Shown here one piece after another: positions 10,622-45,200 of a stretch of DNA of 64,000 nucleotides (position 1 is its first letter; each line of letters opens with the position of its first letter). A program made the translations under genes and the position numbers. Source of the DNA: Escherichia coli (GTDB lineage Bacteria > Pseudomonadota > Gammaproteobacteria > Enterobacterales > Enterobacteriaceae); NCBI RefSeq assembly GCF_048403405.1, contig NZ_CP183129.1; one strand, given 5' to 3'. The notes under the pieces were generated by a model. It made no database searches. It was not told the DNA's origin and saw only the letters and a program-made list of their open reading frames with translations.

Positions 10622-11653
10622 ATGATCGCTGAACTGTTTACAAATAATGCGCTTAATCTGGTCATTATTTTCGGTAGCTGCGCAGCATTGATTCTGATGA
10701 GCTTTTGGTTTCGCCGCGGAAATCGTAAAAGAAAAGGTTTTTTATTCCATGCGGTGCAATTTTTAATCTACACCATAATTATCAGTGCTGTTGGTAGCAT
10801 CATTAATTATGTTATAGAAAACTATAAACTCAAATTTATCACCCCAGGCGTTATCGATTTTATCTGTACGTCCCTGATTGCGGTTATTCTGACGATTAAG
10901 CTATTTCTGCTGATTAATCAGTTTGAAAAACAGCAGATTAAAAAAGGTCGCGATATCACCAGTGCGCGGATTATGTCGCGTATCATCAAAATCACCATTA
11001 TTGTGGTGCTTGTTCTGCTTTATGGCGAACATTTCGGCATGAGCCTTTCTGGCTTGTTGACCTTTGGTGGTATTGGTGGTCTGGCTGTCGGTATGGCCGG
11101 TAAAGATATTCTGAGTAACTTCTTTTCCGGGATTATGCTCTATTTCGACCGTCCTTTTAGTATTGGCGACTGGATCCGTTCACCGGACAGAAATATCGAA
11201 GGTACAGTAGCGGAAATTGGCTGGCGAATTACCAAGATTACGACTTTTGATAATCGTCCGTTGTACGTACCGAACTCGCTGTTTTCGTCAATCAGCGTAG
11301 AAAACCCAGGACGAATGACCAACCGGCGCATTACCACGACCATTGGTTTACGTTATGAGGATGCGGCAAAAGTGGGCGTTATTGTCGAAGCCGTACGTGA
11401 GATGCTGAAAAACCACCCGGCCATTGACCAGCGACAAACCTTACTGGTTTATTTCAACCAGTTTGCTGACTCCTCATTGAATATTATGGTTTATTGCTTT
11501 ACCAAAACCACGGTATGGGCTGAATGGCTTGCTGCACAGCAAGACGTTTATTTGAAGATTATCGATATTGTACAGTCACACGGCGCGGACTTTGCCTTCC
11601 CCAGCCAGACGCTGTATATGGATAACATTACACCGCCGGACCAGGGTCGCTAA
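10622..11653 (+). CDS. ynaI: MscS-family mechanosensitive channel
   Basis: 343-aa ORF; N-terminal TM helices and MscS-like beta domain. Confidence 0.88.
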
Positions 11654-11664
11654 ATCAGACATCA

Positions 11665-11692
11665 CTGGCGTTATCCACAAGGGTAACGCCAG
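11665..11692. terminator. Hairpin between convergent ynaI and mppA
   Basis: Perfect 9-bp inverted repeat CTGGCGTTA-N10-TAACGCCAG; flanking T/A runs are weak. Confidence 0.5.
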
Positions 11693-11703
11693 TTCCCATC
11701 ACA

Positions 11704-13317
11704 TCAATGCTTCACAATATACATAGTCCGACTGTACGCCACATCTTCCGGGTTATTAATGGGATAACCTTTCAGCCACGGCTTGATTAATCGTCCATTG
11801 GTATATTGATAAATTGGTGCAATCGGTGCTTGCTCCATGAGGATTTTTTCTGCCGTATTGTAATCGGCATTACGCGCTTTAACGGTATTTTCCGTTGATG
11901 CCTGGGCCAGTACTTTGTCGTATGCCGGATTGTTAAAGCGTGAAATATTCCCTGAATGCGTTGACGTTAACAACGTAAGGAAAGTGGAGGGTTCATTATA
12001 ATCCCCTACCCATGAGGCGCGGATAACATCAAAATTGCCGGTGTTACGGCTATCGATATAGGTTTTCCATTCCTGATTCTGCAATTTAACATCTACGCCA
12101 AGGTTCTTTTTCCACATCGATGCTACAGCAATCGCAATTTTTTGATGGTTTTCTGAAGTGTTATACAAAAGCGTCAGCTTCAGCGGTTTTTGCGGACCAT
12201 AACCAGCTGCGCTCAACAAAGTTTTTGCCTGCGCATTCAGTTCTTCCTGACTCATTTGTTCAAACGGCGAAGGCTCCGGCGTAAAACCGGCAGTAACATC
12301 TGGTGTAAAATGCCACGCTGGCTTTTCCCCCGTCCCCAACACTTTTTCGGTCATCAGGCGGCGATCTATCGTCATACTTAATGCCAGGCGAACACGCTGA
12401 TCGGCCGTCGGCCCTTTTTGCGTGTTAAACGCATAATAATAGGTCCCGAGCTGCGGCGGCGTATAAACCTGCCCCGGAATATCCTTCAACAGCTTCTGAT
12501 ACATATTTTTCGGGAAGGATTCGGTGATATCAATATCCCCCGCGAGATAACGCTTAGTGGCTGCGGATTCCTGATTAATTGGCAGGAAGGTCACTTTTTG
12601 CAGTACCGTTTTGGCGTTATCCCAATAATGGGTATTCGGCACCACGACCAGTTTTTCATTGACTATGCGCTCTTTAAGAACATAAGCGCCATTGCCGATC
12701 AGATTTCCGGGTTTCGTCCACTCTTTACTGCTTTCTACGTTGGCTTTTTGCACTGGGAAGAAGGCAAAGTTAGCGGTTAAATTCACAAACCACGGCAACG
12801 GTTTATCAAGCTGGATTTTCAAAGTATGGGCATCAACTGCGGTGACGCCAAGCTGGTCAGGCGTGGCTTTACCATCAATAATCGCCTGTGCGTTGTTAAT
12901 TCCCGCCAGCGCGGCAAACCATGCAAATGGCGACAATGTTTTTGGGTCCACCAGACGTTGCCAGCTGTAGACAAAATCTTGCGCCGTTACCGGTGTGCCA
13001 TCCGCCCATTTTGCGTTATCGCGCAGGGTAAAAGTCCAGATACGGTTGTCATTACTTTTCCACTGAGTCGCAACGCCGGGGACAATCTCCCCTTTCTCGT
13101 TCTGATTCACCAGTCCTTCAAACAGATCGCGAATGACCTGAATCTCCGGCAGGCCCACGGCTTTAGCGGGATCCAGAGACGCTGGCTCATCTTTAATGTG
13201 GCGCACCAGCTCCTGCTTCTCTGCCAGTACTGTGCCGCTCGGAACTTCAGCAGCATACGAAAGAGAAATGCTGCTGACCAACAGCGCACAACACGTGACT
13301 GAAACAGAGTGCTTCAT
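11704..13317 (-). CDS. mppA: Periplasmic murein tripeptide-binding protein (OppA paralogue, SBP family 5)
   Basis: ORF 11704..13338; start taken at MKHSVSV (537 aa) with signal peptide. Confidence 0.88.
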   Translation of the reverse strand: MKHSVSVTCCALLVSSISLSYAAEVPSGTVLAEKQELVRHIKDEPASLDPAKAVGLPEIQVIRDLFEGLVNQNEKGEIVPGVATQWKSNDNRIWTFTLRDNAKWADGTPVTAQDFVYSWQRLVDPKTLSPFAWFAALAGINNAQAIIDGKATPDQLGVTAVDAHTLKIQLDKPLPWFVNLTANFAFFPVQKANVESSKEWTKPGNLIGNGAYVLKERIVNEKLVVVPNTHYWDNAKTVLQKVTFLPINQESAATKRYLAGDIDITESFPKNMYQKLLKDIPGQVYTPPQLGTYYYAFNTQKGPTADQRVRLALSMTIDRRLMTEKVLGTGEKPAWHFTPDVTAGFTPEPSPFEQMSQEELNAQAKTLLSAAGYGPQKPLKLTLLYNTSENHQKIAIAVASMWKKNLGVDVKLQNQEWKTYIDSRNTGNFDVIRASWVGDYNEPSTFLTLLTSTHSGNISRFNNPAYDKVLAQASTENTVKARNADYNTAEKILMEQAPIAPIYQYTNGRLIKPWLKGYPINNPEDVAYSRTMYIVKH

Positions 13318-23246: not shown

Positions 23247-24245
23247 ATGTCCCCTACTATTTATGATATTGCCAGGGTTGCAGGCGTATCAAAATCCACC
23301 GTATCACGCGTGCTGAATAAGCAAACCAATATCTCCCCGGAAGCGCGCGAAAAAGTGTTACGGGCCATTGAAGAATTACAGTATCAACCAAACAAGCTGG
23401 CACGCGCGCTGACCTCTTCGGGTTTTGATGCCATTATGGTGATTTCTACCCGTTCGACCAAAACTACGGCGGGTAATCCGTTTTTCTCGGAAGTTTTACA
23501 TGCCATCACCGCCAAAGCTGAAGAAGAAGGTTTCGACGTGATATTGCAGACGTCGCACAACCTGGCAGAAGACTTACAAAAATGCGAAAGCAAAATTAAG
23601 CAGAAAATGATTAAAGGCATTATTATGCTAAGTTCGCCAGCGGATGAGTCATTTTTTGCCCAACTCGATAAATATGATATTCCGGTGGTGGTAATTGGCA
23701 AAGTTGAAGGTCAATATGCCCATGTTTATTCTGTCGATACCGATAATTTTGGCGACAGCATTGCGTTGACCGATGCGTTAATTGAAAGTGGGCATCAAAA
23801 TATTGCCTGCCTGCATGCTCCGCTTGATGTCCATGTTTCGGTTGACCGCGTTAATGGCTATAAGCAAAGTCTGGCTGCGCATAATATTGCAGTGCGTGAT
23901 GAATGGATTGTTGACGGCGGTTATACCCATGAAACAGCCTTGCAAGCCGCACGGCAATTATTAAGCCAGTCGCCGTTGCCAGAAGCCGTATTTGCCACTG
24001 ACAGCCTGAAATTAATGAGCATTTATCGTGCGGCAGCAGAGAAAAATATTGCTATTCCGCAGCAGTTAGCGGTGGTGGGTTATAGCAATGAAACGCTGTC
24101 ATTTATTTTAACGCCTGCACCGGGCGGCATCGATGTTCCGACGCAGGAGTTAGGGCAACAAAGCTGCGAGTTATTATTCCGCTTAATTTCTGGAAAACCG
24201 TCACCACAGAATATTACCGTTGCCACGCATATGACGCTGAAATAA
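23247..24245 (+). CDS. ycjW: LacI-family transcriptional regulator YcjW
   Basis: 332-aa ORF; N-terminal LacI HTH ([20 protein letters not shown]) and periplasmic-binding-protein-like sugar domain. Confidence 0.88.
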
Positions 24246-24355: not shown

Positions 24356-25261
24356 TCAGAACGAGTAATTTACGCCGACACCTGCATAATGGAATTTATC
24401 GCTGTCGCCTTCGTCGTGATCCTGCCACTCAAACGCGTATTCCAGCGAAACGGAAAGACCATTCTGGAAATCATAACCGTAAAATAACCCCACACGGTTA
24501 AAATCATGGCCTTCACGTTCAATATCATCCTGCCAGTCCCAGTTACTCCAGCGATCCAGCCCAATGCGCGTATACGGCGTCACCGAGTGGTTGCCGAGCG
24601 TCAGCGGCAAATAGGCACGAATTTCTTGCGTGGAAAACTCACCGTTATTGCGGCTGTCGTCCATATTGAAGCCGCGCTCGAGATAATAGTTCACTCGCAA
24701 AGCAACCGTTTCGTTGAAGGTATATTGCAGACCTGTTTCCGTTTCGACTCGGGTATCAGCGTAACCGGTCGTGTTCAGATCGTTGGCAAATTTATACATC
24801 GATAACCAACCGTTGAAACGTAAATCGTCAGTCAGTTTCACATCCCAGTCTGGCGCGATTTTCCAGCGCTGCATATTCGCCGTGTCTTTACCCGGTTCAT
24901 CAACGTAGTGATAACCATAATTACGAAAACCGCCGGTCAGGCCGAAACTGAAATCATCGCTTTCGAGGAACTGATAATGCACCTCCAGCTCCGGGCGATC
25001 AAACCATGTTCCACGTTTACCCGCGCTATAATCTACCGGCCCTTCCTGATAATAAGCCAGAGAAATTCTCCACGGCCCGTTGGCGGCATTAAAATAGACA
25101 GAAGGCTCCGCGAGCCCATCCATATCTTCGCCATAACCCTCGACGTTTTCTATTTCGTACATCGCGCCGATATTAAAGTGCCAGTCGTTCTTTTCCTCGG
25201 CCTGTGCGCAGGCCATTCCCGCACACATCACCAGTGCGGTACAGGGTAATAACTTTTTCAT
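24356..25261 (-). CDS. ompG: Outer-membrane porin OmpG
   Basis: 301-aa ORF with signal peptide and beta-barrel pattern ending in an aromatic residue (..YSF). Confidence 0.9.
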   Translation of the reverse strand: MKKLLPCTALVMCAGMACAQAEEKNDWHFNIGAMYEIENVEGYGEDMDGLAEPSVYFNAANGPWRISLAYYQEGPVDYSAGKRGTWFDRPELEVHYQFLESDDFSFGLTGGFRNYGYHYVDEPGKDTANMQRWKIAPDWDVKLTDDLRFNGWLSMYKFANDLNTTGYADTRVETETGLQYTFNETVALRVNYYLERGFNMDDSRNNGEFSTQEIRAYLPLTLGNHSVTPYTRIGLDRWSNWDWQDDIEREGHDFNRVGLFYGYDFQNGLSVSLEYAFEWQDHDEGDSDKFHYAGVGVNYSF

Positions 25262-25305
25262 TATTGTTCCTTGTATTATCCTGGGGGAATGCCTTCCCCC
25301 TGTAT

Positions 25306-26388
25306 TTAGCGAATTGCTATTTCCGTTTCTGCATCAAAGAAATGACATTTAGTCATATCAAAATGAATAGTGATATTTTCTCCTGCATGATAATCATTTA
25401 ACGCACCAGCACGGACCACTAACTCGTGCCCCCCAACCGTGGTGTAGAGCATAAATTCCGCACCGGTTAATTCTGCCACGCTAATTTTGGCGGAAATGTT
25501 ATTTTCCTCTTGCGCGTCCGGATGAATATCTTCCGGGCGTATTCCCATCACGATGGGCTTATGCAAACTTTCCTGTGTTTTCAGAACCGCTAATTTCTCT
25601 TCGGGAATGGTTAATTTAAGCGTTTCAGTAACGAATTTATCGCCATCGATCGTGCCGCGAATAAAATTCATCGCCGGTGATCCAATAAATCCGGCAACAA
25701 ACATATTCGCGGGTTGGTTATAAACCGTTTTCGGCGCACCTACTTGCTGAACAATCCCATCCTTCATAATCACAATCCGCGTCGCCATGGTCATCGCTTC
25801 GGTCTGATCGTGGGTCACGTAGATCATGGTGGTGTTCAGTTTCTGATGCAGCTTGCTGATCTCTGCGCGCATTTGTACGCGCAGCTTGGCATCAAGGTTA
25901 GAGAGCGGTTCATCCATTAAAAACACGCCCGCTTCGCGCACAATCGCCCGCCCGAGCGCCACACGCTGGCGTTGCCCGCCAGAAAGCGCCCCCGGCTTGC
26001 GTTTCAGGTACTCACGCAGGCCGAGAATTTGCGCCGCCCAGTTCACCCGCTCATCAATCACCTCTTTGGCGATTTTTTGCATCTTCAGGCCAAACGCCAT
26101 GTTGTCGTAGACCGTCATATGCGGATACAGCGCGTAGTTCTGGAACACCATCGCAATATTGCGCGCTTTGGCTGGAACGTCATTCATTCGTTTGCCGTCG
26201 ATCAACAGATCGCCGCCGCTGATCTCCTCAAGCCCGGCAATCATGCGCAGGGTGGTCGATTTACCGCAGCCTGACGGACCGACAAAGACAATGAACTCTT
26301 TATCGGCAATTTCCAGGTTGAAGTCCTTCACCACATGCACCTGGTTATCGTAGATTTTTTGAATATGTTGTAACGAAAGCTGAGCCAT
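25306..26388 (-). CDS. ycjV: ABC transporter ATP-binding protein (MalK-like), apparently intact
   Basis: 360-aa ORF; Walker A GPSGCGKST, signature LSGGQRQR, Walker B, C-terminal regulatory domain. Confidence 0.85.
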   Translation of the reverse strand: MAQLSLQHIQKIYDNQVHVVKDFNLEIADKEFIVFVGPSGCGKSTTLRMIAGLEEISGGDLLIDGKRMNDVPAKARNIAMVFQNYALYPHMTVYDNMAFGLKMQKIAKEVIDERVNWAAQILGLREYLKRKPGALSGGQRQRVALGRAIVREAGVFLMDEPLSNLDAKLRVQMRAEISKLHQKLNTTMIYVTHDQTEAMTMATRIVIMKDGIVQQVGAPKTVYNQPANMFVAGFIGSPAMNFIRGTIDGDKFVTETLKLTIPEEKLAVLKTQESLHKPIVMGIRPEDIHPDAQEENNISAKISVAELTGAEFMLYTTVGGHELVVRAGALNDYHAGENITIHFDMTKCHFFDAETEIAIR

Positions 26389-26401
26389 GTTGATTCCTTT
26401 G

Positions 26402-27061
26402 CTATACGTTTTGCCAGAAGGCCGATAACCGCGGCCAGGTCAGGGAGTCCGTTGAGGGCAACAATAATTGCGCCCCGGTTAAGCCCGCGCCGATCCCCAC
26501 CGAGCGCATACCGCTGGCGTTAATGGCGTCAATGCCCGCCTGCGCATCTTCAATACCGATACATGCCTGCGGCGGCACGCCCAGTCCGGCACAGGCGGCG
26601 AGAAAGATTTCCGGGTCCGGTTTCGAGTTTTTAAGTTGGGAAGCGTCCGCGCAGAAGGTGAAAAACTCGCGCAGCTCCAGCGCTGCTAAAATCGTCGGCG
26701 CATTCAGGGAGACAGAAGCCAGCCCTATAGGGATCTGCTGTGCGCAGAGATCTGTCAGCAAAGAGCGAATGCCGGGCAGCACAGCATTAACCGTCAGTTT
26801 GCGCAGTGAGTGGACGTAGAGCAGATTTTTGCGATACGCCAGTTGCGCCCTTTCCTGCGGGTTAAAGTCGCCCTCTTTGCCCCCGTGTTGCAGAATGCGT
26901 CGCAGAGACTCATCGCGGCTGATCCCTTTTAGGGATTCGTTAAACTGCGCATCAATGCTGATGCCAATTTCAGCGGCAATCTGCTGCCACGCCTTGAAAT
27001 GCAGATGCGCGGTATCGGTGATTACACCATCCAGATCGAAAATTACCCCTTGCAGTTTCAT
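26402..27061 (-). CDS. ycjU: Beta-phosphoglucomutase (HAD superfamily)
   Basis: 219-aa ORF; HAD motif [10 protein letters not shown]. Confidence 0.88.
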
Positions 27062-29325
27062 TCATCCTCCTGATGCGTGGTAGCGGTCCCATTGAAGGGC
27101 AAAATAAAATCACCCAAACAGAAAACAGATTCTTCAGCCACAGATATAAGCTGCCCGTTCAAACGCAGTGAAACGGGCGCAGAAGTTCGAATCGCAATAC
27201 GCTGCGCGTCGAGAGTGACCTGTAATTCGCAGCCCTGCCAGAACAGAGGGAAAGACAACTGTTGCCACTGCACAGGTAACGCCGGATTCAAATTTAATTC
27301 ACCGTCACGCACGCTCACCCCGGCAAAACCCTGAATCGCCCCCAGCCAGATAGCGCCAGTTGCGGCAGCATGGATACCGTCGTCGCAGCTATGCGGGTCA
27401 GCACCGAGATCGATTTCAGTCCCCTCCCGCCAGAACTGATAACTTTGCGCCAACAGGCCACAGCGTGCGGCAACAATGCCGTGGATCGCTTTACTCAGTG
27501 AAGAGTCGTGAATGGTGCGCGGTTCATAAAATTGCAGATTGGCAAGACACGATGCCGCTGAGTACTGCTCCGGCAGCATGTAATTGAGCATCACCACATC
27601 AGCTTGTTTGAGGATCTGCATCTCGTTCACTTCTGCGCGTGAATAATCCAGCAGAATGGTTTGCTTCCCCGCCGCCGCTTTGTATTTCGCCAGATTAATC
27701 GCTGGTTTCGCCATAAACGAATCATCCTGCGGCAAAACGCCGTCGGGCTGAATTTCTGGCAGCCGCAGTTCTTTAAGGAACATTTCGGCGCGATGGATAA
27801 ACGCATCGTCGCTACAGCCAAATTGACGAGCGATGTTCAGCGCCTGCTGGACGTTGTAATACGCCATATAGCTGGTGAAGGCGTTATTATTGACATGTTC
27901 GGTATATTCGTCTGGCCCAATAACATCATGAATTTCCAGACGGTCGTTAACCCTCACCGTGCGGCTAATCCAGAACTTTGCAGTTTCCAGAAGTAGCGCC
28001 ATGCCTTCATGAGCAATGAAACTTTCATCCCCCGTGGTCTGCCAGTATTGAACAACCGCCCAGGCGATATCGGCGACCAGATGATGTTCCGCCTGCGCCG
28101 AGGCCACTTTTTGCCGCAGCCCGGTGCGAATGTTAATGGCGGCAAATTCCGGCGTCTCTTCTTCGCCGCTGCGCGCGCTTTCCCACGGAAATAGCGCGCC
28201 CTGCCAGCCGTTGCGTCGCGCTTTCTCCTGCGCGCCTGGCAAGTTGTGCCAGCGATAACGCAGTAAACTTCTGGCAATCGTCGGTTCGCTAAACAGATGG
28301 AACGGCAGTAAAAATACTTCCGTATCCCAGAAAACGTGGCCTTTGTAGCCTTCCCCGGTCAAACCTTTTGCCGCAATACTGCTGCGCTCGTCGTGAGCAG
28401 GCGTCATGATGCATAGGTGATAAAGCGCATAATCTAACGCTTGCTGATCGTGCGCATCGCCACCGTTTACCGTGATACGACGTTTCTGCCACCATTGACG
28501 CCAGTTTTCTGTGGATGCTGCAAGAAGTTGGTCGTAACTCTGCTGTACACACATTTCAAGCTGACGAAGCGACGCACTGCCCCACTCGTCTAAAGCGACG
28601 TGCCTGTCATCCCGCCAGTCGATCCACACCAGTTTTTGCAGCGTCAGCGTTTCGCCTGCGTGAAGTTGCGCACTGGTATGTTGCAGCAAGCGGCGCTCTT
28701 TGGCGGTATAGCATTGCTGCACATCACCGCTCACCTTACAGCAACAGCTGATGGCCACATCACTGCGCCCATCCTGGGTGGTGTAGATCCCCTGCATCAA
28801 ATGCTGACCAAACACCCGCACCTGGGTTTCGTCGAGATGCTGGCGACCGTGGTTGGTTTGCGTGGCGTCAATGCCTGTTGAAATCAGCACTGACGCGTCA
28901 GCGTCCAGCGGCGTAATGCTGATTTCCAGCGCCATCAGCGGCAGTTGTTCTGCCGAAACAAAGCGACGGCTGGCAATGGCATAACGTGCGCCGCTGGCTG
29001 AAGACCAGACGACATTGCGACGTAATTCTCCACTGGCGAAGTCAAGCTCGCGCTGCCACGTTTCGCGGGATAGCGCAAAAAGTTCACCATTCAAGGTAAT
29101 CTCCATCCCTATGACGTCAGGCAGGTTCACCAGTTCGTTGATGTCATTTTTCCCCGCGCGATGATAAAGCCCCGCCAGATACATACCGCGTGTCTGGCGC
29201 GTATAATCTTCTTCATGGCTGGCGCGAAGCCCAAGATAGCCGTTCCCCTGCGCCATCAGCGAAGCATACTTGTTCAGGGTATGCTGGCTGAAATGGGGTT
29301 CCGTTAACGTTACTGGCCTGATCAT
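27058..29325 (-). CDS. ycjT: Glycoside hydrolase family 65 phosphorylase (kojibiose phosphorylase-type)
   Basis: 755-aa ORF; start overlaps ycjS stop, stop overlaps ycjU start. Confidence 0.85.
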
Positions 29326-30377
29326 AATTCCACACGCGTCCCTGTTTCTGCGGATTGATACAACGCCGCCACCAGTTGCTGGATGATGTACCCCTGCTCG
29401 GCGTCGGCTATCATCACGGGCTTGCCCTGTACGTGATTAATAAAGGCTTCCATGCTGCGCAAATGGCGATTGTCGTCTGCCATTTCCCGCTGCATCAGCG
29501 TCATCAATTCACCGTTGTTATCGGTGTAGATATGTGCTGGAAACAGCGTTGCACCAGCTTTATCACCACAAAAGCTGACGTTCATAATCGACTGTTCGCG
29601 GATGTTGAGTGCAAATGACGTTTCCAGCCACAGAATGCCGCCGTTATGAAATTCAATGGTGCCAAATAACGAATCTTCGACGCTGTAAGTTGCCGGATCC
29701 CACTCGCCAAATTGACCACAGCTCTTTTGTGTGCCGATCTTTTGAAAGCTATGCGCGGTCACGCTTTTCACCGCCGGAAAGCCCAGTACATACATCGCCG
29801 CATCCAGCATATGAATGCCGATGTCGATCAGCGGCCCGCCGCCCTGCAATTCTTTATTGGTAAAAACGCCCCAGCCGGGAACGCCGCAGCGACGCAGGGC
29901 GCGGGCGGTGGTAACGTAAATCTCTCCCAAAACGCCGTTGGTCACCTGTTCACGCAGCTGTTGCGTATCGAGTGCAAAACGATGGTGAAAGTCGTAGGCC
30001 AGCACCTTGCCCTGTTTGCGCGCGGTATCGCACATTTCCCGCGCCTGTTCTGGCGTCATGGCGGGCGGTTTTTCGCACATCACATGGCAGCCCGCTTCCA
30101 GTGCCATCAGGGTATGTTCGTAATGAAAACGGTTAGGTGAGCAGACGCTAACCACATCAGGTTTCACCGCCAGCAGCATGGCCTGCGGATCGTCCCACAC
30201 GGATGCATTCCCGTATTTTTCTGCCAGCGCCTGCGCCTGGGAAAGGCAGCTGTCACAGACAGCCACCAGTTCCAGATCGTTGCGGGTGCAGTAGTACGAA
30301 GCATGAACCTTATCCGCCACCTGGCCTGCGCCTATTATCGCGACCCGCAGCGGAGAGCTTGTCATTGCACTTTTCAC
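29322..30377 (-). CDS. ycjS: Gfo/Idh/MocA-family NAD-dependent sugar oxidoreductase
   Basis: 351-aa ORF; N-terminal Rossmann motif (IIGAGQVA). Confidence 0.85.
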   Translation of the reverse strand: MKSAMTSSPLRVAIIGAGQVADKVHASYYCTRNDLELVAVCDSCLSQAQALAEKYGNASVWDDPQAMLLAVKPDVVSVCSPNRFHYEHTLMALEAGCHVMCEKPPAMTPEQAREMCDTARKQGKVLAYDFHHRFALDTQQLREQVTNGVLGEIYVTTARALRRCGVPGWGVFTNKELQGGGPLIDIGIHMLDAAMYVLGFPAVKSVTAHSFQKIGTQKSCGQFGEWDPATYSVEDSLFGTIEFHNGGILWLETSFALNIREQSIMNVSFCGDKAGATLFPAHIYTDNNGELMTLMQREMADDNRHLRSMEAFINHVQGKPVMIADAEQGYIIQQLVAALYQSAETGTRVEL

Positions 30378-30386
30378 AAAGACCTC

Positions 30387-31175
30387 TTAGCAGGTACGCA
30401 ACCAGGCCAACGAATCACGGTACGCCTGGGCAGGATCTTCCGCCCGGATACGCCCTTCGTACACTACATAGCCCTGATAGTTATCCGCGCGCAGCTGTTC
30501 AAACAGCGCGTGGAAATCGAGGGTGCCGCTGCCCGGCTGGTAGCGATGGTTATCCGCAATATGCACATGACCGAGCAGGTCGCGGTTGTCATGCAGCGCC
30601 TGCGCCAGGTTATCTTCTTCGATATTCATGTGATAGAAATCGCCGATAATCTGTACATGTTTAAGATCGTTTTCGACGATGTAACGGCGGGCATCGGCGA
30701 GAGTGTTGATCATATGATCCTGATAGCGGTTTAACGGTTCGAGATACACCACGGTTCCGGTACGCGCGGCGACCTGTTCAAGTACGCGCAGGGAATCACT
30801 CACCATTTTACGATCGCCGTTCAGGCTGCGCGGCGAGGTCATCGGCGGTAAGCGGAAGGTAAACATGCCCCACGCTGCCGGAACGACGATACCCTTACCC
30901 CCCACTTCTGCCAGCGCTTCGAGAATGCGTTCGATCTGCTTTAAGCCATTAAGACGACGCTCTTCAATAAAGTCACCAATCCAGCCGTCATAGCCACCGC
31001 AGGCGGTGGTCACCGGTAAACCGGTTTCTTTAATCGCCGCTTTGACTTCTTCGATGTTGTTGACCAGCAGTTTGCCGTCAATCTCAAAACCATCGAAGCC
31101 CATCTCTTTGATATAACGAAATTTCTCGCGGATATTTTCCGGAAAGAATGCCTGATTCTGTGTGCCTATTTTCAT
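30387..31175 (-). CDS. ycjR: Xylose-isomerase-like TIM-barrel sugar epimerase
   Basis: ORF 30387..31304; start moved to MKIGTQNQAF (31175), downstream of the ycjQ stop, giving 262 aa. Confidence 0.8.
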   Translation of the reverse strand: MKIGTQNQAFFPENIREKFRYIKEMGFDGFEIDGKLLVNNIEEVKAAIKETGLPVTTACGGYDGWIGDFIEERRLNGLKQIERILEALAEVGGKGIVVPAAWGMFTFRLPPMTSPRSLNGDRKMVSDSLRVLEQVAARTGTVVYLEPLNRYQDHMINTLADARRYIVENDLKHVQIIGDFYHMNIEEDNLAQALHDNRDLLGHVHIADNHRYQPGSGTLDFHALFEQLRADNYQGYVVYEGRIRAEDPAQAYRDSLAWLRTC

Positions 31176-31192
31176 TTTTTCATTCCTTTGAA

Positions 31193-32245
31193 TTAAAACG
31201 TAACGCCCATTTTGATGCTCTGTTCCGGATGCTGATCGACATACTGCATGTAGCTTTCCGGGCTCTTGGCAAAGGTCACTACCGGGTCGATTAAATCTTC
31301 GCAATTGAGATAACCGTTCATCAGCAGTTCCCAGCAGGTTTCTTCAATACGCTTACGGCTCCAGCGCGGATAATCCGGGTTCGGTTCGCTGCACGCGCGG
31401 GAGAAAACAATTTTGGCGTTATTGAAATGCGCTTCGCGTCCGAGGTTAAATCCTTCAGCAAATGGTTTGGCAAACGCGACATAGGAGATGGTGCCACCGT
31501 AGGCCAGACCGCGCAGCGCCGATTGCAACGCGTCGGCGTAACCGCTGGTTTCGATAATCACATCGGCACCCTGCTTGCCGGTCAGCGTTTTGATCTCTTT
31601 TCCTACGTCAGTGCCAATGGGGTTAAGGCAGAAATCAGCACCGTGGCGACGGGCAATATCACAGCGATAGGCGATAGGATCGACGCCAATCACCACCGAC
31701 GCGCCAGCGCGTTTCGCCAGTTGGATGGCTATTTGACCAATCGCGCCAAGCCCTACCACCACCACAAAATCACCCACGCGCACGTTGGCATCGCGCACGC
31801 CGCTCATGGCAAACTGCGCCGGGTCGTAACAAACGGCGTTTTTCCACGAGCTGCCTTCCGGCATTTTGCGCAGCTTGTAGTTATTCACCGCGTTAATGAT
31901 GACCGTCTCGGAGAGCGGGCCGTAGCCGCATACGCTGTCGCCCACCGCGTAGTCGGTAACGTCGCTGCCGCACTCGATAATGTCGCCAACCACCATGTTG
32001 CCAAGCTGGAATTTGCCAAACTCAATGCCGCGCGGCGCATCTGCCGGACGCGGAGTGAACATCTGCCATTCGCCGTTAAAGTCTTCATCGATAAACGGGC
32101 TGGCGGCGCGGAAGTCGACCACTTCCGTTCCGTGTTTCGGTGCGCCGAAACGCACGCGGATTTTCACTTCATTGGCTAAAATCGCCCGATCTTCATACTC
32201 AACCAGCGCAGCAACACGCGGTGCTGTGGCTACTAACTTTTTCAT
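31193..32245 (-). CDS. ycjQ: Zinc-dependent alcohol/sugar dehydrogenase (MDR family)
   Basis: 350-aa ORF; GxGxxG NAD motif (VVVGLGAIG) and Zn-binding Cys/His residues. Confidence 0.85.
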   Translation of the reverse strand: MKKLVATAPRVAALVEYEDRAILANEVKIRVRFGAPKHGTEVVDFRAASPFIDEDFNGEWQMFTPRPADAPRGIEFGKFQLGNMVVGDIIECGSDVTDYAVGDSVCGYGPLSETVIINAVNNYKLRKMPEGSSWKNAVCYDPAQFAMSGVRDANVRVGDFVVVVGLGAIGQIAIQLAKRAGASVVIGVDPIAYRCDIARRHGADFCLNPIGTDVGKEIKTLTGKQGADVIIETSGYADALQSALRGLAYGGTISYVAFAKPFAEGFNLGREAHFNNAKIVFSRACSEPNPDYPRWSRKRIEETCWELLMNGYLNCEDLIDPVVTFAKSPESYMQYVDQHPEQSIKMGVTF

Positions 32246-32275
32246 TTAAAACTCCTTGTAAAGAAACTGGCCGCT

Positions 32276-33118
32276 TTAGCCCTTCACGCCACCGGCGGTC
32301 AAACCACTCTTAATAAAACGTTCCGAAAGCGCATACATAATCACCACCGGCAATGCGGTCACCAGTGAGGCCGCCATCATCCGTCCCCAGATGTAATCTG
32401 GCGTACTGAACAGCGCGTTCAGGCCCACCGGTAAGGTGAAATTGCTGGCGCTGGAGAGGAAAATCGACGCAAACAGATAGTCGTTCCACGCCACCATAAA
32501 GCAGTAGACGAACACGGATATCAGCCCGGACATCGCCAACGGCACGGTGATGCGGAAGATAATTTGCAGACGGTTGAGGCCATCCATCATCGCCGCTTCT
32601 TCGATCTCATCGGGGATGGTGTCGAAGTAGCTTTTCAGCATAAACACGGCGGTGGGCAGAGTTTGCGTCACCATGGTGATGATCAGCGCCATCTCGGTGT
32701 CGTAAATGCCCAGCGCGGTGATGATTTTGAACAGCGGCACCACCAGCAAAATGCCAGAGAACATATACACCGTGTAAAAGCTGGCATTGATGGTCATCCG
32801 ACCTTTAAAGCGCAGGCGGGAAAGCGCGTAAGCCCCAAGAATGCCGAGGAATACCGCCACCACGGATGAAACCACCGACACCACCAGACTGTTACGGAAG
32901 TAGTCGACAAACGGGAAAATCATCGGGTTAAAAATGTCGACGTAATGCTCCAGCGTCCACTGCTGCGGCAGCAGCGTAGGATGCAGTGAGATCGCCTCTT
33001 TCGCGCCCTTGAACGAGGTCATCAGCATCACAAAAAATGGAAACAGCGTGATGATGAGAAACAGCGCCAGCCCGCAGTAAAAACCGATGCGACTGAGTGT
33101 GCGTTTATTTGTTGCCAT
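32276..33118 (-). CDS. ycjP: ABC sugar transporter permease
   Basis: 280-aa polytopic membrane protein with permease EAA-type loop. Confidence 0.85.
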   Translation of the reverse strand: MATNKRTLSRIGFYCGLALFLIITLFPFFVMLMTSFKGAKEAISLHPTLLPQQWTLEHYVDIFNPMIFPFVDYFRNSLVVSVVSSVVAVFLGILGAYALSRLRFKGRMTINASFYTVYMFSGILLVVPLFKIITALGIYDTEMALIITMVTQTLPTAVFMLKSYFDTIPDEIEEAAMMDGLNRLQIIFRITVPLAMSGLISVFVYCFMVAWNDYLFASIFLSSASNFTLPVGLNALFSTPDYIWGRMMAASLVTALPVVIMYALSERFIKSGLTAGGVKG

Positions 33119-33986
33119 TGAGGTTCACCCGTTTCCTGGTCAGCAGAATGACAGCGAAAATAATGATGAAGAGCACCACCGAGATCGCCGCCGCTTTTCC
33201 TAAATCATTAAAGGCAAAGGCGGTTTTGTAGAGATATACACCGAGAATATCGACCTTGGTCGTCAGCAGATAAACATCCGCGAACATGTAGAACATCCAG
33301 ATGGTGCGCAGGGTCACCACCGTCGCCAGGACCGGCATAATCGCGGGCAGCGTGACAATGCGAAACCGCTGCCAGGCATTAGCGCCATCCATCTCTGCCG
33401 CTTCGTACAACGATTTATCAATGGTCTGCAAAATCGCCAGAAACGAAATAAAGGCATAGGGGAAGTAGCGCCAGATGGCGAACAGCACCACCAGCACAAA
33501 GCTACTGCCCGGATTATCGAACCACAGCGGTGCCTGCTCATAGAGATGCAGAAGATCGACGCCGAGGTAGTTCACAATGCCGTAACCGTTGTTGAACATG
33601 TATTTCCAGGCGAACACCAGCGAAATAGACGGCGTTACGTAGGAGAGGATCACCAGCGAACGCGCGGTTTTGCGCAGGCGGAACTCGCGGTTGAAAAACA
33701 TCGCCACGGCCAGCCCGAGCACGGTGCTGCCCGTCACCACCAGTGTGGTATACCAGACCGTCATCCACAGCGAGTGCCAGAAGCCGGGATCGGAGAGAAT
33801 ACGCACGTAGTTGCTTACCCCAACAAACGTTGACTCGATGTTGGGATTGAGCGGCAGACGTAAAAAACTGATTTCGATATTCGACACCATCGGCCACGCC
33901 ACCAGACCGCCCAGCAGTAATAAGCTGGGCGCGAGAAGCAACAGCGCAAAGGGCATATCGGAACGACCTGAAAAAAGCCTGTTCAT
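33105..33986 (-). CDS. ycjO: ABC sugar transporter permease
   Basis: 293-aa polytopic membrane protein; overlaps ycjP start by 14 bp. Confidence 0.85.
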   Translation of the reverse strand: MNRLFSGRSDMPFALLLLAPSLLLLGGLVAWPMVSNIEISFLRLPLNPNIESTFVGVSNYVRILSDPGFWHSLWMTVWYTTLVVTGSTVLGLAVAMFFNREFRLRKTARSLVILSYVTPSISLVFAWKYMFNNGYGIVNYLGVDLLHLYEQAPLWFDNPGSSFVLVVLFAIWRYFPYAFISFLAILQTIDKSLYEAAEMDGANAWQRFRIVTLPAIMPVLATVVTLRTIWMFYMFADVYLLTTKVDILGVYLYKTAFAFNDLGKAAAISVVLFIIIFAVILLTRKRVNLNGNK

Positions 33987-34006
33987 TGCGGATTCCTGTC
34001 CTGGGT

Positions 34007-35299
34007 TTAGTGCTGTTCAACCAACTCATCCAGCTTTTTCTGGCTCGTTTGCAGCGTGCCAGGGAGGTCGGCTTTACCCACGGTGACGTTATGCACCATG
34101 GAGCTCACCACGCCAGAACCCGTCACATCGCCCATGCGGGTAAAATTTTTATCCCCTACTGCGCCAAAGACCTGAATATTTGGCAGTTCGCTGATTAACT
34201 GATTTGGCAGCTCACCCAGCGCCTTAATAACGTCGTTGTCTTTCCAGGTGGCGGTAGTGACAACCGCTTTGTTCACCGGCAGCGCCGCGCCTGGCGACAT
34301 CATCACCCAGTCGGCAATGTTGTCTGCCTGCTCCATAAAGGTGACAAATTTTTCTGCTGCTTCCGTCTCTTCGGTCTTTTGCCCGGCGGTAATGGTCAGC
34401 GAGGTCAACATGCCGTAGACCGCAGAGTTTTTCTCGGTTGGCACCACGAAACCGACGTTTTTCGGATCGCCTTCTTTAATTACAGCCGGAAGGATATAGG
34501 TGGAGTAAATCGCCAGCGGCGCGGTGCCGTTCATAAAGGCGTCTTTCACTTCCATGATGTCGTTAGAACCCGGCATCGTGTTGGCGGCAAGGTCGCGGTA
34601 ATAGGTCAGCGCCTGCATCATCTCTGGGGTATCAAGGGTGATTTTGCCTTCTGCGTTAAAGACGTTGGCCTGGTTGGATAACGCAAACTGGGAGAAGGAT
34701 TGTTCCGTCAGTACGCTTTCTGCCGTCGGCAGTGCAATGCCGTATTTTTTATTCGCCGGGTCATTCAGTTTCTGTGCAACGTCCAGTAGCTGTTGCCAGT
34801 TTTTCGGCTCCTCCAGCCCCGCTTTTGCCAGCACATCTTTGCGATACCAGATGCCGCCAATCCAGGCACTCACAGGAACACCGGTCCATGCGCTACCATC
34901 TTCGGTGCGCACAATACGCAGTACGCCATCGTAAAACGCGCCTTCACCCACGTTGCTGATGACTGTGGCAACCGCTTTGCGATCGATAAGCTGCTCTTTG
35001 TCCATAACTTTGGCGTAGTCATGGCTGGTTTCGATCACTTCCGGCAGTGAGCCGCTACGTGACAGGGTTATGACTTTGGTGTTATAGGCATCTTCTTCCA
35101 CTGGCACTTGTTTAACGGTGATGCCCGAGTTTTCTTTTTCAAAACGGGCAATCAATTTACTGATAACGGCTTGACGCTCCTGCTCCACCGAAGAATGCAT
35201 AAATTCGATGGATACATGGGTTTTATTTTCTTCTTTACAGCCTGAAATCAGGGCGCAGGAAACCAGTGCTGATAACAGCACGATTTTTGATTTAATCAT
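34007..35299 (-). CDS. ycjN: Periplasmic sugar-binding protein (SBP family 1)
   Basis: 430-aa ORF with lipoprotein-type signal (LISGC). Confidence 0.85.
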   Translation of the reverse strand: MIKSKIVLLSALVSCALISGCKEENKTHVSIEFMHSSVEQERQAVISKLIARFEKENSGITVKQVPVEEDAYNTKVITLSRSGSLPEVIETSHDYAKVMDKEQLIDRKAVATVISNVGEGAFYDGVLRIVRTEDGSAWTGVPVSAWIGGIWYRKDVLAKAGLEEPKNWQQLLDVAQKLNDPANKKYGIALPTAESVLTEQSFSQFALSNQANVFNAEGKITLDTPEMMQALTYYRDLAANTMPGSNDIMEVKDAFMNGTAPLAIYSTYILPAVIKEGDPKNVGFVVPTEKNSAVYGMLTSLTITAGQKTEETEAAEKFVTFMEQADNIADWVMMSPGAALPVNKAVVTTATWKDNDVIKALGELPNQLISELPNIQVFGAVGDKNFTRMGDVTGSGVVSSMVHNVTVGKADLPGTLQTSQKKLDELVEQH

Positions 35300-35313
35300 G
35301 AGATGTTCCTTTT

Positions 35314-36993
35314 TTATTTAATCCACATAACCTGCCAGGGGCGCAGCGTTATTTCATTACCCAATATATCAACTTCACTAATCAGATCCCGACCGTGCAG
35401 ATCAGTAATATTTATATGCTGAATATTTTCACTGACATTAAACAATCCTGTCAGACAATTACCATCCGCGTTGTTTCTTTGAATACGCATTACGGATGAA
35501 TTAACCGTGTCGATGGTAAAATCATTATCCGGATGAAACTCGTTATGACTGCAACGAAGTGTAATTAAACGCGACAACTGATGATATACCGCATGCCTTA
35601 ATGTATCTTCATCGTTCAGTTCTCGGGTTATCTCTTCATTGTGATATTTTTTACGGTTAATCGCACGGTTATATCCCAGTTTTTCGACACCTGCGTAATC
35701 ATTACGCGAGCCAAGAATACTTTGAATATATATCGCTGGCACACCGGGGAAACTTAACAAAATCGCATGGGCAAGGATAAACCTGGCACACCGCTCTTCA
35801 TCGCTACTCTCGCGGCGGCTTAACGCATCCATATAGGTGACATTTATTTCATAGGGACTGCGCGTACCGTCGGGATTATTTTTCCAGTTTACTAATGCAC
35901 CTTCCTGCTGTAACGCCTCGACCAGCGCTAATATTTCGCTTTCTGGTAACAAGCCACGCAGTGGGTTCAGCCCGATGCCATCGTGAGAGGCGAGGAAGTT
36001 AAACCAGGTGGTGTTGCTGGAAGGTAGTGTCAGGTTTTGCGCCCACGCACAAAGCGCCTCAACGTTCTGTTTTTGCACCGCATGCAGCACCAGCGGCGGC
36101 AGCGAGAACTGGTACACCATATGCGCTTCGTCATCGCCTTCGCCAAAGTAAGCAATGTTGTCTTTATGCGGAACATTGGTCTCGGTAATGATCACTGTAC
36201 CTGGTGCTACGTCATCAATAATCGACCGTAACAGCTTGATAATCAGATGTGTTTTTTCCAGATGGATGCAGCTTGTTCCTGGCTCTTTCCACATAAAGCC
36301 AACGGCATCCAGCCGGACATATTCTGCGCCCTTTTCCAGGTAGCACAGCAATACATCCACCATCGCCAGCAACACTTCAGGGCTACGGTAATTGAGGTCA
36401 ATTTGATCGTCGCTAAAGGTGGTCCATAAATGGCGCGTGGAATTATCATCCATTTGAAACGGTGTTAATAGCGGTAACGCACGCGGACGGGTGACGGCGC
36501 TGAGATCGGTTTGCGGATCAACAGCAATAAAAAAATCTTCAAAACCTGGCTGCTGTTGTAAATAGTTTTTAAACCATTCACTTTTTGCCGACATATGGTT
36601 GCAGACAAAATCAAACATTAAATGACTGCATTCACCGAGTTGCTGAATATCCTGCCACTCCCCCGCTTCACTGGCGACCTGATGATAATCAATTACCGAA
36701 AACCCATCATCAGATGACCATGGATAAAAAGGTAATAAATGAACATGTGAAAAAATGCTTTGCAGCCATTGATGGTAAAACTGATTAAATGTGGGTAGTG
36801 GTTTTAAATCATTACTGTGAAATTGATCAGCATAGGTAATTAACACGACATCACTTTCATCCCAGTGTTTTTTACGTCGCTGTGTAATTAATCGTTTCGC
36901 ACTCTCAAGACGCGTTACAAGTTTCTGTAAATGAGTCGCGGTAAATGTTCCACCGTAGATTTCGTCCAGGTAATCCGTAATTTTCTGTTTCAT
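35314..36993 (-). CDS. ycjM: GH13 sucrose-phosphorylase-like glycoside phosphorylase
   Basis: ORF 35314..37020; start taken at MKQKITDYLDEIYGG (559 aa). Confidence 0.85.
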   Translation of the reverse strand: MKQKITDYLDEIYGGTFTATHLQKLVTRLESAKRLITQRRKKHWDESDVVLITYADQFHSNDLKPLPTFNQFYHQWLQSIFSHVHLLPFYPWSSDDGFSVIDYHQVASEAGEWQDIQQLGECSHLMFDFVCNHMSAKSEWFKNYLQQQPGFEDFFIAVDPQTDLSAVTRPRALPLLTPFQMDDNSTRHLWTTFSDDQIDLNYRSPEVLLAMVDVLLCYLEKGAEYVRLDAVGFMWKEPGTSCIHLEKTHLIIKLLRSIIDDVAPGTVIITETNVPHKDNIAYFGEGDDEAHMVYQFSLPPLVLHAVQKQNVEALCAWAQNLTLPSSNTTWFNFLASHDGIGLNPLRGLLPESEILALVEALQQEGALVNWKNNPDGTRSPYEINVTYMDALSRRESSDEERCARFILAHAILLSFPGVPAIYIQSILGSRNDYAGVEKLGYNRAINRKKYHNEEITRELNDEDTLRHAVYHQLSRLITLRCSHNEFHPDNDFTIDTVNSSVMRIQRNNADGNCLTGLFNVSENIQHINITDLHGRDLISEVDILGNEITLRPWQVMWIK

Positions 36994-37206
36994 GTTGCCT
37001 TTCCGTGGTAGCGGTCCCATGAAACGAGAGACTACTCCGCAGAAAATAAACTGTCAATTGAGTACAAGGGTTTTAGTCACGCAGGAAATCATTTTTTACC
37101 AGGGAAAAAGCGTATTTGTGAGCTGACGCAAATAATCTATGGGGATGTAAATAAGGTGTGACAGAAAAAGTAAACGGCGCATAAGCGCCGCTTAGGGTGG
37201 ATTCTT

Positions 37207-39297: not shown

Positions 39298-40275
39298 ATG
39301 GCAGAATACAAAGATAATTTACTCGGTGAGGCGAACAGCTTTCTCGAAGTGCTGGAACAGGTTTCGCATCTCGCACCGCTGGACAAACCGGTGCTCATCA
39401 TCGGCGAGCGCGGCACAGGTAAAGAGCTCATTGCCAGCCGTCTGCATTATCTCTCCTCCCGTTGGCAGGGGCCGTTTATTTCCCTTAACTGCGCGGCGTT
39501 AAATGAAAATCTGCTGGATTCCGAACTGTTTGGTCACGAAGCGGGCGCGTTTACCGGTGCGCAAAAACGTCATCCAGGGAGATTTGAACGTGCCGACGGC
39601 GGTACGCTATTTCTTGATGAACTCGCTACGGCACCGATGATGGTGCAGGAGAAATTATTGCGCGTGATTGAGTACGGTGAACTGGAGCGCGTCGGCGGCA
39701 GCCAGCCATTGCAGGTGAATGTACGGTTGGTATGCGCGACGAATGCCGATCTCCCGGCGATGGTCAATGAAGGTACTTTTCGCGCTGACCTACTCGACCG
39801 GCTGGCTTTCGATGTAGTGCAACTGCCGCCCCTGCGCGAGCGCGAAAGCGACATTATGCTGATGGCAGAACACTTTGCCATTCAGATGTGTCGGGAAATC
39901 AAGCTGCCTCTGTTCCCGGGGTTTACGGAGCGCGCCAGAGAAACATTGCTGAATTATCGCTGGCCGGGAAATATTCGTGAATTGAAAAACGTGGTGGAAC
40001 GTTCAGTGTATCGCCACGGCACCAGCGATTATCCGCTTGATGACATCATTATTGATCCCTTTAAACGGCGTCCGCCTGAAGACGCTATCGCCGTTTCAGA
40101 AACCACCTCGCTTCCAACACTGCCGCTGGATTTACGTGAGTTTCAGATGCAGCAGGAAAAAGAGTTGCTGCAACTCAGTTTGCAACAAGGGAAATATAAC
40201 CAGAAGCGCGCGGCTGAATTGCTGGGGTTAACCTATCATCAGTTCCGCGCGTTGTTGAAAAAGCACCAGATTTAG
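39298..40275 (+). CDS. pspF: Sigma54-dependent activator PspF
   Basis: ORF 39283..40275 (GTG in track); ATG start at MAEYKDNLLG (325 aa); Walker A GERGTGKE, GAFTGA motif, C-terminal HTH. Confidence 0.92.
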   Translation: MAEYKDNLLGEANSFLEVLEQVSHLAPLDKPVLIIGERGTGKELIASRLHYLSSRWQGPFISLNCAALNENLLDSELFGHEAGAFTGAQKRHPGRFERADGGTLFLDELATAPMMVQEKLLRVIEYGELERVGGSQPLQVNVRLVCATNADLPAMVNEGTFRADLLDRLAFDVVQLPPLRERESDIMLMAEHFAIQMCREIKLPLFPGFTERARETLLNYRWPGNIRELKNVVERSVYRHGTSDYPLDDIIIDPFKRRPPEDAIAVSETTSLPTLPLDLREFQMQQEKELLQLSLQQGKYNQKRAAELLGLTYHQFRALLKKHQI

Positions 40276-40296
40276 CGAAGTTGGGCAATACAACTT

Positions 40297-40378
40297 GCCG
40301 GATGCGGCGTGAACGCCTTATCCGGCATACATAATCAATACGTCGTTTGCAGGCCTGATAAGCGCAGCGTATCAGACA
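40297..40378. repeat. REP/BIME cluster between pspF and puuE
   Basis: TGCCGGATGCGGCGTGAACGCCTTATCCGGCATACA followed by a second REP-like palindrome GCCTGATAAGCGCAGCGTATCAG. Confidence 0.8.
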
Positions 40379-40394
40379 TTATTGCGTTGGGCTA

Positions 40395-41660
40395 TTAATC
40401 GCTCAGCGCATCCTGCAAAATTTTCATTGCCGCATCGAATTGCGCATCCGGGATGGTCAGCGGATACAGGAAACGAATCACGTTGCCGTATGCGCCACAG
40501 GTCAGTAGAAGCAGCCCCTGCGCCAGCGCGCGTTGCTGGATTTTCTGTGCAATCGCCGCTGACGGCTCGCCCGTTTGCGGATCGTTAAACTCTGCCGCAA
40601 TCATAGACCCCAGACCGCGTACCGCCGCGATGGCCGGAACGCTTTCTTTGGCATCAATCAACGTGTTTGTCAGGCGCTGGCCCAGTTGATTCGCGCGTTC
40701 ACAGAGTGATTCTTTGTCGATAATGTTGAGCACAGCGTGCGCGGCAGCCACCGCCAGCGGGTTCCCGGCGTAGGTACCACCCAACCCGCCCGGCGCGGGC
40801 GCGTCCATAATATTCGCGTTACCGACCACGCCCGAAAGCGGCATCCCGCCCGCGAGGCTTTTCGCCATCGTCATTAAGTCCGGCTTATCGGCGTAGTGAT
40901 CCATGGCAAACAGTTTACCGGTACGCGCAAAGCCGCTTTGCACTTCATCGGCAATCATCACAATGCCGTGCTCGTCGCACAGGCGGCGAATGGCGGCAAC
41001 CAGCTCTGTTGGTGCAACGTTGAAACCGCCTTCGCCCTGCACCGGTTCGAAAATAATCGCCGCCACCTGCTTCGCTTCAATGTCCGATTTAAACAAGCGT
41101 TCGATGGCGTCGAGAGAGTCCTGCGTTGAAACGCCATGTAAATCTGACGGATAAGGTACGTGATATACCGAACCGGGGAACGGGCCGAAGCCGATTTTGT
41201 ACGGCGCGACCTTTCCGGTCAGCGCCATGGTCATATATGTACGACCGTGGAAGCCGCCGCTAAACGCAATCACGCCAGGGCGTCCGGTATGGGCGCGGGC
41301 GATTTTCACCGCGTTCTCCACCGCTTCCGCACCGGTGGTGAAGAACGCAGTTTTAGCCTGCCCGCTCACCGGGGCAAGGGCGTTAATTTTCTCCGCCAGG
41401 GTGACGTAGCTTTCGTACGGCACAATCTGATACGCCGTGTGGGTAAACTGTTGCAATTGCTGCTCCACCGCCGCGACCAGATCAGGGTGGCGATGCCCGG
41501 TATTCAGCACCGCAATGCCTGCGGCGAAATCGATGTATTCGTTGCCCTCTACATCCTTCAGCGTGGCGTTTTCTGCCGACTGGGCGAAGAAGTTACACAT
41601 CACGCCAACCCCGCGTGGGGTAGCAGAAAGACGACGCTGATGGAATTCATTGTTGCTCAT
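40395..41660 (-). CDS. puuE: 4-Aminobutyrate aminotransferase (PLP-dependent, class III)
   Basis: 421-aa ORF of the class-III aminotransferase family. Confidence 0.9.
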   Translation of the reverse strand: MSNNEFHQRRLSATPRGVGVMCNFFAQSAENATLKDVEGNEYIDFAAGIAVLNTGHRHPDLVAAVEQQLQQFTHTAYQIVPYESYVTLAEKINALAPVSGQAKTAFFTTGAEAVENAVKIARAHTGRPGVIAFSGGFHGRTYMTMALTGKVAPYKIGFGPFPGSVYHVPYPSDLHGVSTQDSLDAIERLFKSDIEAKQVAAIIFEPVQGEGGFNVAPTELVAAIRRLCDEHGIVMIADEVQSGFARTGKLFAMDHYADKPDLMTMAKSLAGGMPLSGVVGNANIMDAPAPGGLGGTYAGNPLAVAAAHAVLNIIDKESLCERANQLGQRLTNTLIDAKESVPAIAAVRGLGSMIAAEFNDPQTGEPSAAIAQKIQQRALAQGLLLLTCGAYGNVIRFLYPLTIPDAQFDAAMKILQDALSD

Positions 41661-41697
41661 GTTTCACACCTTTTGACTCTTCACTGTTAATCGGAAA

Positions 41698-42978: not shown

Positions 42979-42979
42979 T

Positions 42980-44467: not shown

Positions 44468-44616
44468 TATGACTCCTGTTTCACGTCTATCAGATATATG
44501 CAGTTTGTGAACGTCAGGGCGCAGAGATCCCCGGGCCGTATGCCCGTTTATTTCTGGCGACATTCTTTATGGATTGCCGGGCGCATTGCGCTTACCCGGC
44601 TTACAGAACAAAAAGA

Positions 44617-45174
44617 TTAAAACGTGGTGGGCGTATGGGCGCTGATAATTCGGCAAATACCTGCCGACGTATTACTGAAACTGTGCGGGATGCCGGTATT
44701 AATGGCATAACTTTGCCCCGCGACGAGGTGGTAATCCTGACCATTAATCGTCAGAACAATTTCACCTTCCAGTACAGTGCCTATTTCCTCACCCTGATGC
44801 TTAATTCTTTCCCCAGTGGTTGTGCCCGGCTGGTAAGTTTCAAAGATCATCGCCAGCGTGCGATTCGGGTTACCGTTATGAACCAGCTTCATTGACACAC
44901 CCTGACTGCCCATCTCAATTAAGTCGTCCTGATTAATGACGACCTGCGGCTCATCAGGTTTTTCCGGCTCGGAAAAGAATTCCGAGAGTGACAGACCATA
45001 CACCTTCAGCAGCTTTTGCAGCGTACTGATGGCAGGGCTGACTTTATCTTGTTCTATCGTACTGATAGCACTGTGAGTCAGCCCGGAGAGTTCGGCGGCA
45101 CGACGTTGTGAAAGCCCCTGCTGCTGGCGGATTTCCGACAAGCGTTTTCCTGGCGCCAGTCCCTCATCACTCAT
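44617..45174 (-). CDS. puuR: HTH-type repressor PuuR (XRE HTH plus cupin)
   Basis: 185-aa ORF with N-terminal XRE-type HTH and C-terminal cupin. Confidence 0.9.
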   Translation of the reverse strand: MSDEGLAPGKRLSEIRQQQGLSQRRAAELSGLTHSAISTIEQDKVSPAISTLQKLLKVYGLSLSEFFSEPEKPDEPQVVINQDDLIEMGSQGVSMKLVHNGNPNRTLAMIFETYQPGTTTGERIKHQGEEIGTVLEGEIVLTINGQDYHLVAGQSYAINTGIPHSFSNTSAGICRIISAHTPTTF

Positions 45175-45200
45175 ATTTGCATTTCCTTAAACTGTAGTGG

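Follow-up and report, generated by a model that had tools for sequence, protein, structure and literature searches.

An intact ycjV, the predicted ATPase gene of the YcjNOP sugar importer in Escherichia coli, and its frameshifted form in K-12

Introduction

Does ycjV encode a full-length transporter ATPase in Escherichia coli, and does it, together with ycjN, ycjO and ycjP, make up a complete ABC importer? The question is raised by the copy found in the window, i.e. the whole stretch of 64,000 nucleotides of E. coli DNA analysed here. In K-12 production strains ycjV is routinely referred to as a pseudogene and serves as a neutral site of integration (PMC10380740, PMC4786092), and in a genome paper it is listed among the reported EHEC factors of bovine gut colonisation (PMC8009128). 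The gene is part of an operon transcribed as ycjMNOPQRSTUV-ompG and repressed by YcjW, which comes off its operator in vitro in the presence of kojibiose (PMC6599011). YcjN has been described as a diacylated lipoprotein, lipidated at Cys21 and belonging to subcluster D-I of the substrate-binding proteins (PMC11543891).

The ycjV gene and its product

The ORF listing of the window contained ycjV as a single ORF on the minus strand (25306-26388), with an ATG start, a product of 360 aa and no internal stops. The preliminary description of this locus, in which the strand was unstated, had taken the ATPase to be intact, and the one unbroken reading frame, free of internal frameshifts and stops, agrees with this. 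Between the stop codon of pgmB/ycjU and the start codon of ycjV lie 13 nt, and an AAGGA Shine-Dalgarno sequence is located 6 nt ahead of the start.

The Walker A, LSGGQ and Walker B motifs and the MalK-like C-terminus named in the same description were all recovered by regular expressions on the translation and by Pfam searches. Walker A (GPSGCGKS, of the form GxxGxGK[ST]) occupies residues 37-44, the ABC signature LSGGQ residues 135-139 and Walker B (VFLMDE), which includes the catalytic Glu, residues 155-160. The same regular expression search located the Q-loop (VFQ, 81-83), the D-loop (SNLD, 163-166) and the H-loop (THD, 192-194). The Pfam family ABC_tran (PF00005) matched residues 21-162 (E = 1e-31), followed by OB_MalK (PF17912) at residues 236-288 (E = 2e-14) and TOBE_2 (PF08402) at residues 282-351 (E = 5e-10). 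This C-terminal pairing of OB_MalK and TOBE is the one that marks ATPases of the MalK/UgpC/MsmX (CUT1) type, and YcjV has this CUT1-type architecture in common with MalK and UgpC of E. coli.

Within this type, YcjV scored 485 bits against the NCBIfam UgpC subfamily NF008653, above the cutoff of 432, and 431 bits against the MalK equivalog NF008233, below the cutoff of 568. These scores mark it as a paralogue of the MalK/UgpC type that is not MalK. Neither is it ugpC, a separate paralogue with which ycjV shares only 70-74% nucleotide identity over a 416-bp core. Among solved structures, the best match was MsmX of Bacillus subtilis (6yir), with the same domain order, aligned end to end at E = 1e-148 and 498 bits; the published identity of the two proteins is 64% (PMC7658222). 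The next matches were AlgS, archaeal MalK, SugC and E. coli MalK, in full length, the last of these also end to end (E = 5e-100, 338 bits). Across the characterised members 6yir, 4tqu, 1q12 and 7cad the E-values ranged from 1e-148 to 1e-100, and the end-to-end alignments with MsmX and MalK put the match far beyond chance.

Operon context

The complete operon ycjMNOPQRSTUV-ompG was found in the window, with 11 of 11 genes intact, of expected length, free of internal stops and all on the minus strand (Table 1). The genes are separated by spacers of −14 to +44 nt, a tight spacing that fits a single operon. The gene order pgmB-ycjV-ompG, with ycjW beyond, and a nucleotide identity of at least 95% to annotated ycjV identify the gene as the E. 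coli ycjV orthologue. As expected of a CUT1 ATPase, YcjV is encoded together with two BPD_transp_1 permeases, each with a canonical EAA motif, and with a sugar-binding protein of cluster D.

Table 1. Features of the window discussed in the text. Positions are those of the window; aa, amino acids.
Feature	Position	Strand	Description	Basis
ycjW	23247..24245	+	LacI-family operon repressor, 332 aa, divergent	repressor function, PMC6599011
ompG	24356..25261	-	monomeric outer-membrane porin, 301 aa, last gene of the operon	Pfam Porin_OmpG
ycjV	25306..26388	-	ABC importer ATPase with MalK-type OB/TOBE domain, 360 aa	ORF, Pfam, NCBIfam, identity to WP_000057972.1
G6 homopolymer	25429..25434	-	C6 on the plus strand; gene nt 955-960, codons 319-320 (Gly-Gly)	alignment with K-12
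pgmB/ycjU	26402..27061	-	beta-phosphoglucomutase, 219 aa
ycjT	27058..29325	-	GH65 kojibiose phosphorylase, 755 aa
ycjS	29322..30377	-	Gfo/Idh/MocA dehydrogenase, 351 aa
ycjR	30387..31175	-	sugar phosphate isomerase/epimerase family, 262 aa
ycjQ	31193..32245	-	zinc-dependent dehydrogenase, 350 aa
ycjP	32276..33118	-	ABC permease, 280 aa, EAA motif at residue 174	Pfam BPD_transp_1 PF00528, motif
ycjO	33105..33986	-	ABC permease, 293 aa, EAA motif at residue 195	Pfam BPD_transp_1 PF00528, motif
ycjN	34007..35299	-	substrate-binding lipoprotein, 430 aa, lipobox LISGC, Cys21	Pfam SBP_bac_1 PF01547, SBP_bac_8, N-terminus
ycjM	35314..36993	-	GH13 glucosylglycerate phosphorylase, 559 aa, first gene of the operon
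MFS efflux pump	55307-56470		sapF-fabI island
Outer-membrane factor	56479-57852		sapF-fabI island
RND permease	57856-60963		sapF-fabI island
Periplasmic adaptor	60963-62117		sapF-fabI island
TetR regulator	62233-62898		sapF-fabI island

With intact ycjN, ycjO, ycjP and ycjV the window holds the four parts of the importer, and the earlier proposal that it completes the ycjNOP system stands as a sound genomic prediction. The phosphorylase genes ycjM and ycjT, placed alongside the importer in the same proposal, are likewise intact, as are pgmB and ompG. From the gene context and the literature, glycosides taken up by this importer would feed YcjM and YcjT. The partnership of YcjV with YcjNOP is probable on the same grounds, and the substrate would be kojibiose, glucosylglycerate or gulosides.

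A scan for promoters and terminators around ycjV revealed nothing beyond the expectation from shuffled sequences except a hairpin in the 44-nt spacer between ycjV and ompG. The hairpin (25283-25300) has a 7-bp stem, GGGGGAA-GGCA-TTCCCCC, and is identical in K-12. Unlike a typical intrinsic terminator, it is not followed by a T run on the sense (minus) strand; it may serve in mRNA processing or stability ahead of ompG.

The K-12 frameshift

Pairwise alignment of the window ycjV (1083 nt) with that of K-12 W3110-P (1082 nt) displayed 25 substitutions and one gap, at a nucleotide identity of 97.6%. The gap is one G missing from the run at gene positions 955-960, which reads G5 instead of G6 in W3110-P and in MG1655, the two sequences being the same. 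The K-12 gene is thus not equally intact. At the same locus as the window gene, its frame shifts after residue 320 and reaches a stop two codons on, and its product has 320 native residues followed by Thr-Ser-stop. The last 40 residues are split off and remain encoded, native C-terminus included, in the ymjB frame. About one third of the C-terminal OB/TOBE domain is lost in this way, and the whole nucleotide-binding domain is kept. The reference genome NC_000913.3 lists both pieces as pseudogenes, ycjV as b1318 (1380821-1381789) and ymjB as b4524 (1381789-1381902), and PGAP labels the W3110-P ycjV 'frameshifted'. The statement in the preliminary description that K-12 ycjV is a disrupted pseudogene is thus borne out by both alignment and annotation.

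All but one of the 25 substitutions were synonymous (n = 24), the exception being A232S. This ratio, together with the native ymjB frame downstream, indicates that the inactivation is recent and that the gene has been under purifying selection. The K-12 lesion is an event of the laboratory lineage and not the ancestral state, and the function of YcjV has probably been lost in K-12.

Distribution in E. coli

Among 5426 complete E. coli genomes, ycjV was present over at least 80% of the gene in 4980, and the whole 12.7-kb operon from ycjM to ompG, again over at least 80%, in 4943. The operon was entirely absent from about 380 genomes. An exact match to the 61-mer with the K-12 G5 tract was found in only 370 of 4995 genomes, and the other roughly 4600 carriers gave a 62-base match with one gap, i.e. 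the G6 state, their intactness at the tract being read from this search centred on the K-12 G5 tract and not from gene-by-gene translation. Nearly all of the 60 exact G5 matches listed (370 in total) were K-12 derivatives, including MG1655, W3110 lines, DH5alpha, DH1, C600, J53, TG1 and NCM3722. Intact ycjV is the norm of the species and the broken K-12 copy the exception; the intact gene is no peculiarity of the window.

Full-length copies between pgmB and ompG, as in the window, were also found in Ecol_316 and BL21. The Ecol_316 protein (WP_000057972.1, annotated 'ABC transporter ATP-binding protein') is 100% identical to that of the window. The BL21-derived strain Nico21(DE3) carries an intact ycjV whose product (WP_000057985.1) is identical at 359 of 360 residues; BL21 shares with K-12 a serine at residue 232, where the window protein has alanine.

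A single-base difference in a run of G is a classic site of sequencing error, and the intactness of the window gene could in principle be an artefact of sequencing or assembly at the homopolymer. The probability of this is negligible in our view, given the 62-base match of the G6 type in about 4600 independent complete genomes, the 100% identity of the gene to that of Ecol_316 and of the whole operon to that of TUM14771, and the fact that G6 restores a frame whose C-terminus aligns with MsmX through the last residue. The reading that remains is that the window carries a genuine full-length gene.

The idea that G5 is strictly confined to K-12 was rejected, because at least one other genome among the matches listed, that of the 5.6-Mb stool isolate 2014C-3051 (NZ_CP027338.1, locus L009, 277-1358), also has the G5 frameshift. 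Its ycjV allele differs from that of K-12 at about 22 sites mid-gene, and its G5 tract may have arisen by independent slippage, by recombination or as an assembly error in the homopolymer. The G tract was also considered as a general hot spot of lesions and dismissed as such upon examination of BH100 (NZ_CP025251.1, locus L004, 301-1384), which is annotated as frameshifted and has its lesion elsewhere, outside the G run: an A6 to A7 change at nucleotides 311-316, accompanied by Q83R in the Q-loop. In STS63-2-E (NZ_CP162161.1, locus L005, 5147-6412) an IS1-associated deletion extends from pspE into ycjV, and T28R too has an IS1-associated deletion.

Proposed role and consequences

We consider it highly probable that the window ycjV is the wild-type E. 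coli allele and that its product is the nucleotide-binding subunit of a binding-protein-dependent sugar importer of the CUT1 type (MalK/UgpC/MsmX-like). The allele is the usual one of a gene that is already annotated, and the reference annotation records the K-12 frameshift as well.

The working of the importer may be depicted as follows, by analogy with MalFGK2-MalE and other type I ABC importers. Substrates would enter through OmpG in the outer membrane and be captured by the periplasmic lipoprotein YcjN as binding protein, with YcjO and YcjP as permeases and YcjV as the ATPase motor. A YcjV homodimer would dock on the two permeases at their EAA coupling helices. Two ATP molecules would be bound per dimer, each held between the Walker A motif of one YcjV and the LSGGQ motif of its partner, and the OB/TOBE domains would provide a constitutive dimer contact and possibly a regulatory input. 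Once substrate-loaded YcjN has bound, hydrolysis involving Glu160 and His193 would drive alternating access and power the inward release of the substrate delivered. In the cytoplasm YcjT, YcjM, YcjQRS and YcjU would convert the imported glucosides to glucose and glucose phosphates.

The YcjV of BL21 (WP_000057985.1) has been expressed in B. subtilis and characterised biochemically, and according to the authors it retained ATPase activity (PMC7658222). The window protein, which differs from it in one residue, is predicted to hydrolyse ATP likewise. The BL21 protein was unable to energise the B. subtilis importers AraNPQ and GanSPQ (PMC7658222), a failure that is silent on YcjOP and marks YcjV as not promiscuous. 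Of the sugars tried with purified YcjN, including kojibiose, glucose and maltose, none produced a thermal shift (PMC11543891).

Other CUT1 systems of E. coli (mal, ugp) have ATPases of their own. This is relevant to the idea that YcjV is a shared, 'multitask' ATPase that serves several importers beyond YcjNOP in the manner of MsmX, an idea that draws on the closer similarity of YcjV to MsmX (498 bits) than to E. coli MalK (338 bits). We regard it as very unlikely. Unlike the multitask MsmX, YcjV is encoded in the same operon as its own permeases and ycjN; it has other residues in place of the charged ones put forward as a multitask signature, and it failed to substitute for MsmX in vivo (PMC7658222). 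A dedicated ATPase of the YcjNOP system remains the preferred reading.

The intact gene might nonetheless be of little physiological consequence, if the K-12 protein, truncated at residue 320, still works or if either MalK or UgpC, which are partly interchangeable in E. coli, can energise YcjOP. In keeping with such a view, the whole nucleotide-binding domain and about two thirds of the C-terminal domain lie ahead of the K-12 frameshift. The 40 lost residues, however, align with the end of the regulatory domain of MsmX and MalK, and in MalK this domain is the constitutive dimer contact. The 24 synonymous substitutions against a single nonsynonymous one, together with the C-terminus conserved throughout the species, also argue that the full length is selected. 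Integration into the ycjV locus of K-12 as a neutral site, with no phenotypes reported (PMC10380740), again favours the view of little consequence, and against it stands the observation, as given in PMC6599011, that K-12 MG1655 does not grow on kojibiose minimal medium despite an active YcjT. Taken together, we find it unlikely that the truncation is of little consequence.

That the frameshift in ycjV explains this lack of growth, in a strain with active YcjT and YcjU and a kojibiose-responsive YcjW, and also why no physiological substrate of the ycj system has been found, is a doubtful proposition, which we put forward tentatively. If true, kojibiose, glucosylglycerate or gulosides would be taken up by, and support the growth of, strains with the intact allele, as in the window. 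Two of the ycj papers are based on K-12: growth was tested in K-12 MG1655 (PMC6599011), and the wild-type strain listed in PMC13053599 is E. coli K-12. The word 'pseudogene' is absent from the ycj papers PMC6599011, PMC11543891 (preprint text) and PMC13053599, and 'frameshift' is absent from PMC6599011 and PMC13053599. As the importer ATPase of K-12 is without its 40 C-terminal residues, negative results of growth or uptake obtained in that strain may not carry over to natural E. coli. For tests of ycj-pathway substrates K-12 is a poor choice of strain, be it for kojibiose, glucosylglycerate, gulosides or transport by YcjN.

Flanking regions

TUM14771 matched the window at 100% identity over its left end and throughout the ycj operon. 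Compared with most E. coli the operon was only about 96% identical, and in 8 genomes the identity was at least 99%. This suggests that the allele or the lineage is one of the less common ones.

Collinearity of the window with Ecol_316 was considered and rejected: two accessory islands differ, and the identity is mosaic, the flanks 1886-12170 and 40169-55256 being 98.8-99.2% identical to Ecol_316 as against 100% for ycjV (in the region 24356-37020). At the left end (1-1885) an AraC-family regulator gene (1106-1921) and the end of an HlyD-family gene adjoin abgR, where Ecol_316 has smrA and dgcM. Of the 5426 genomes, 1457 contained this AraC/HlyD segment; the TUM14771 copy is 100% identical. To the right, a 7.9-kb accessory island (55258-63153) is located between sapF and fabI, replacing a stretch of about 0.7 kb that contains ycjD in Ecol_316. 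It carries the efflux and regulatory genes listed in Table 1 and was present in 2043 of the 5426 complete genomes, including those of O157:H7, ATCC 25922 and the type strain.
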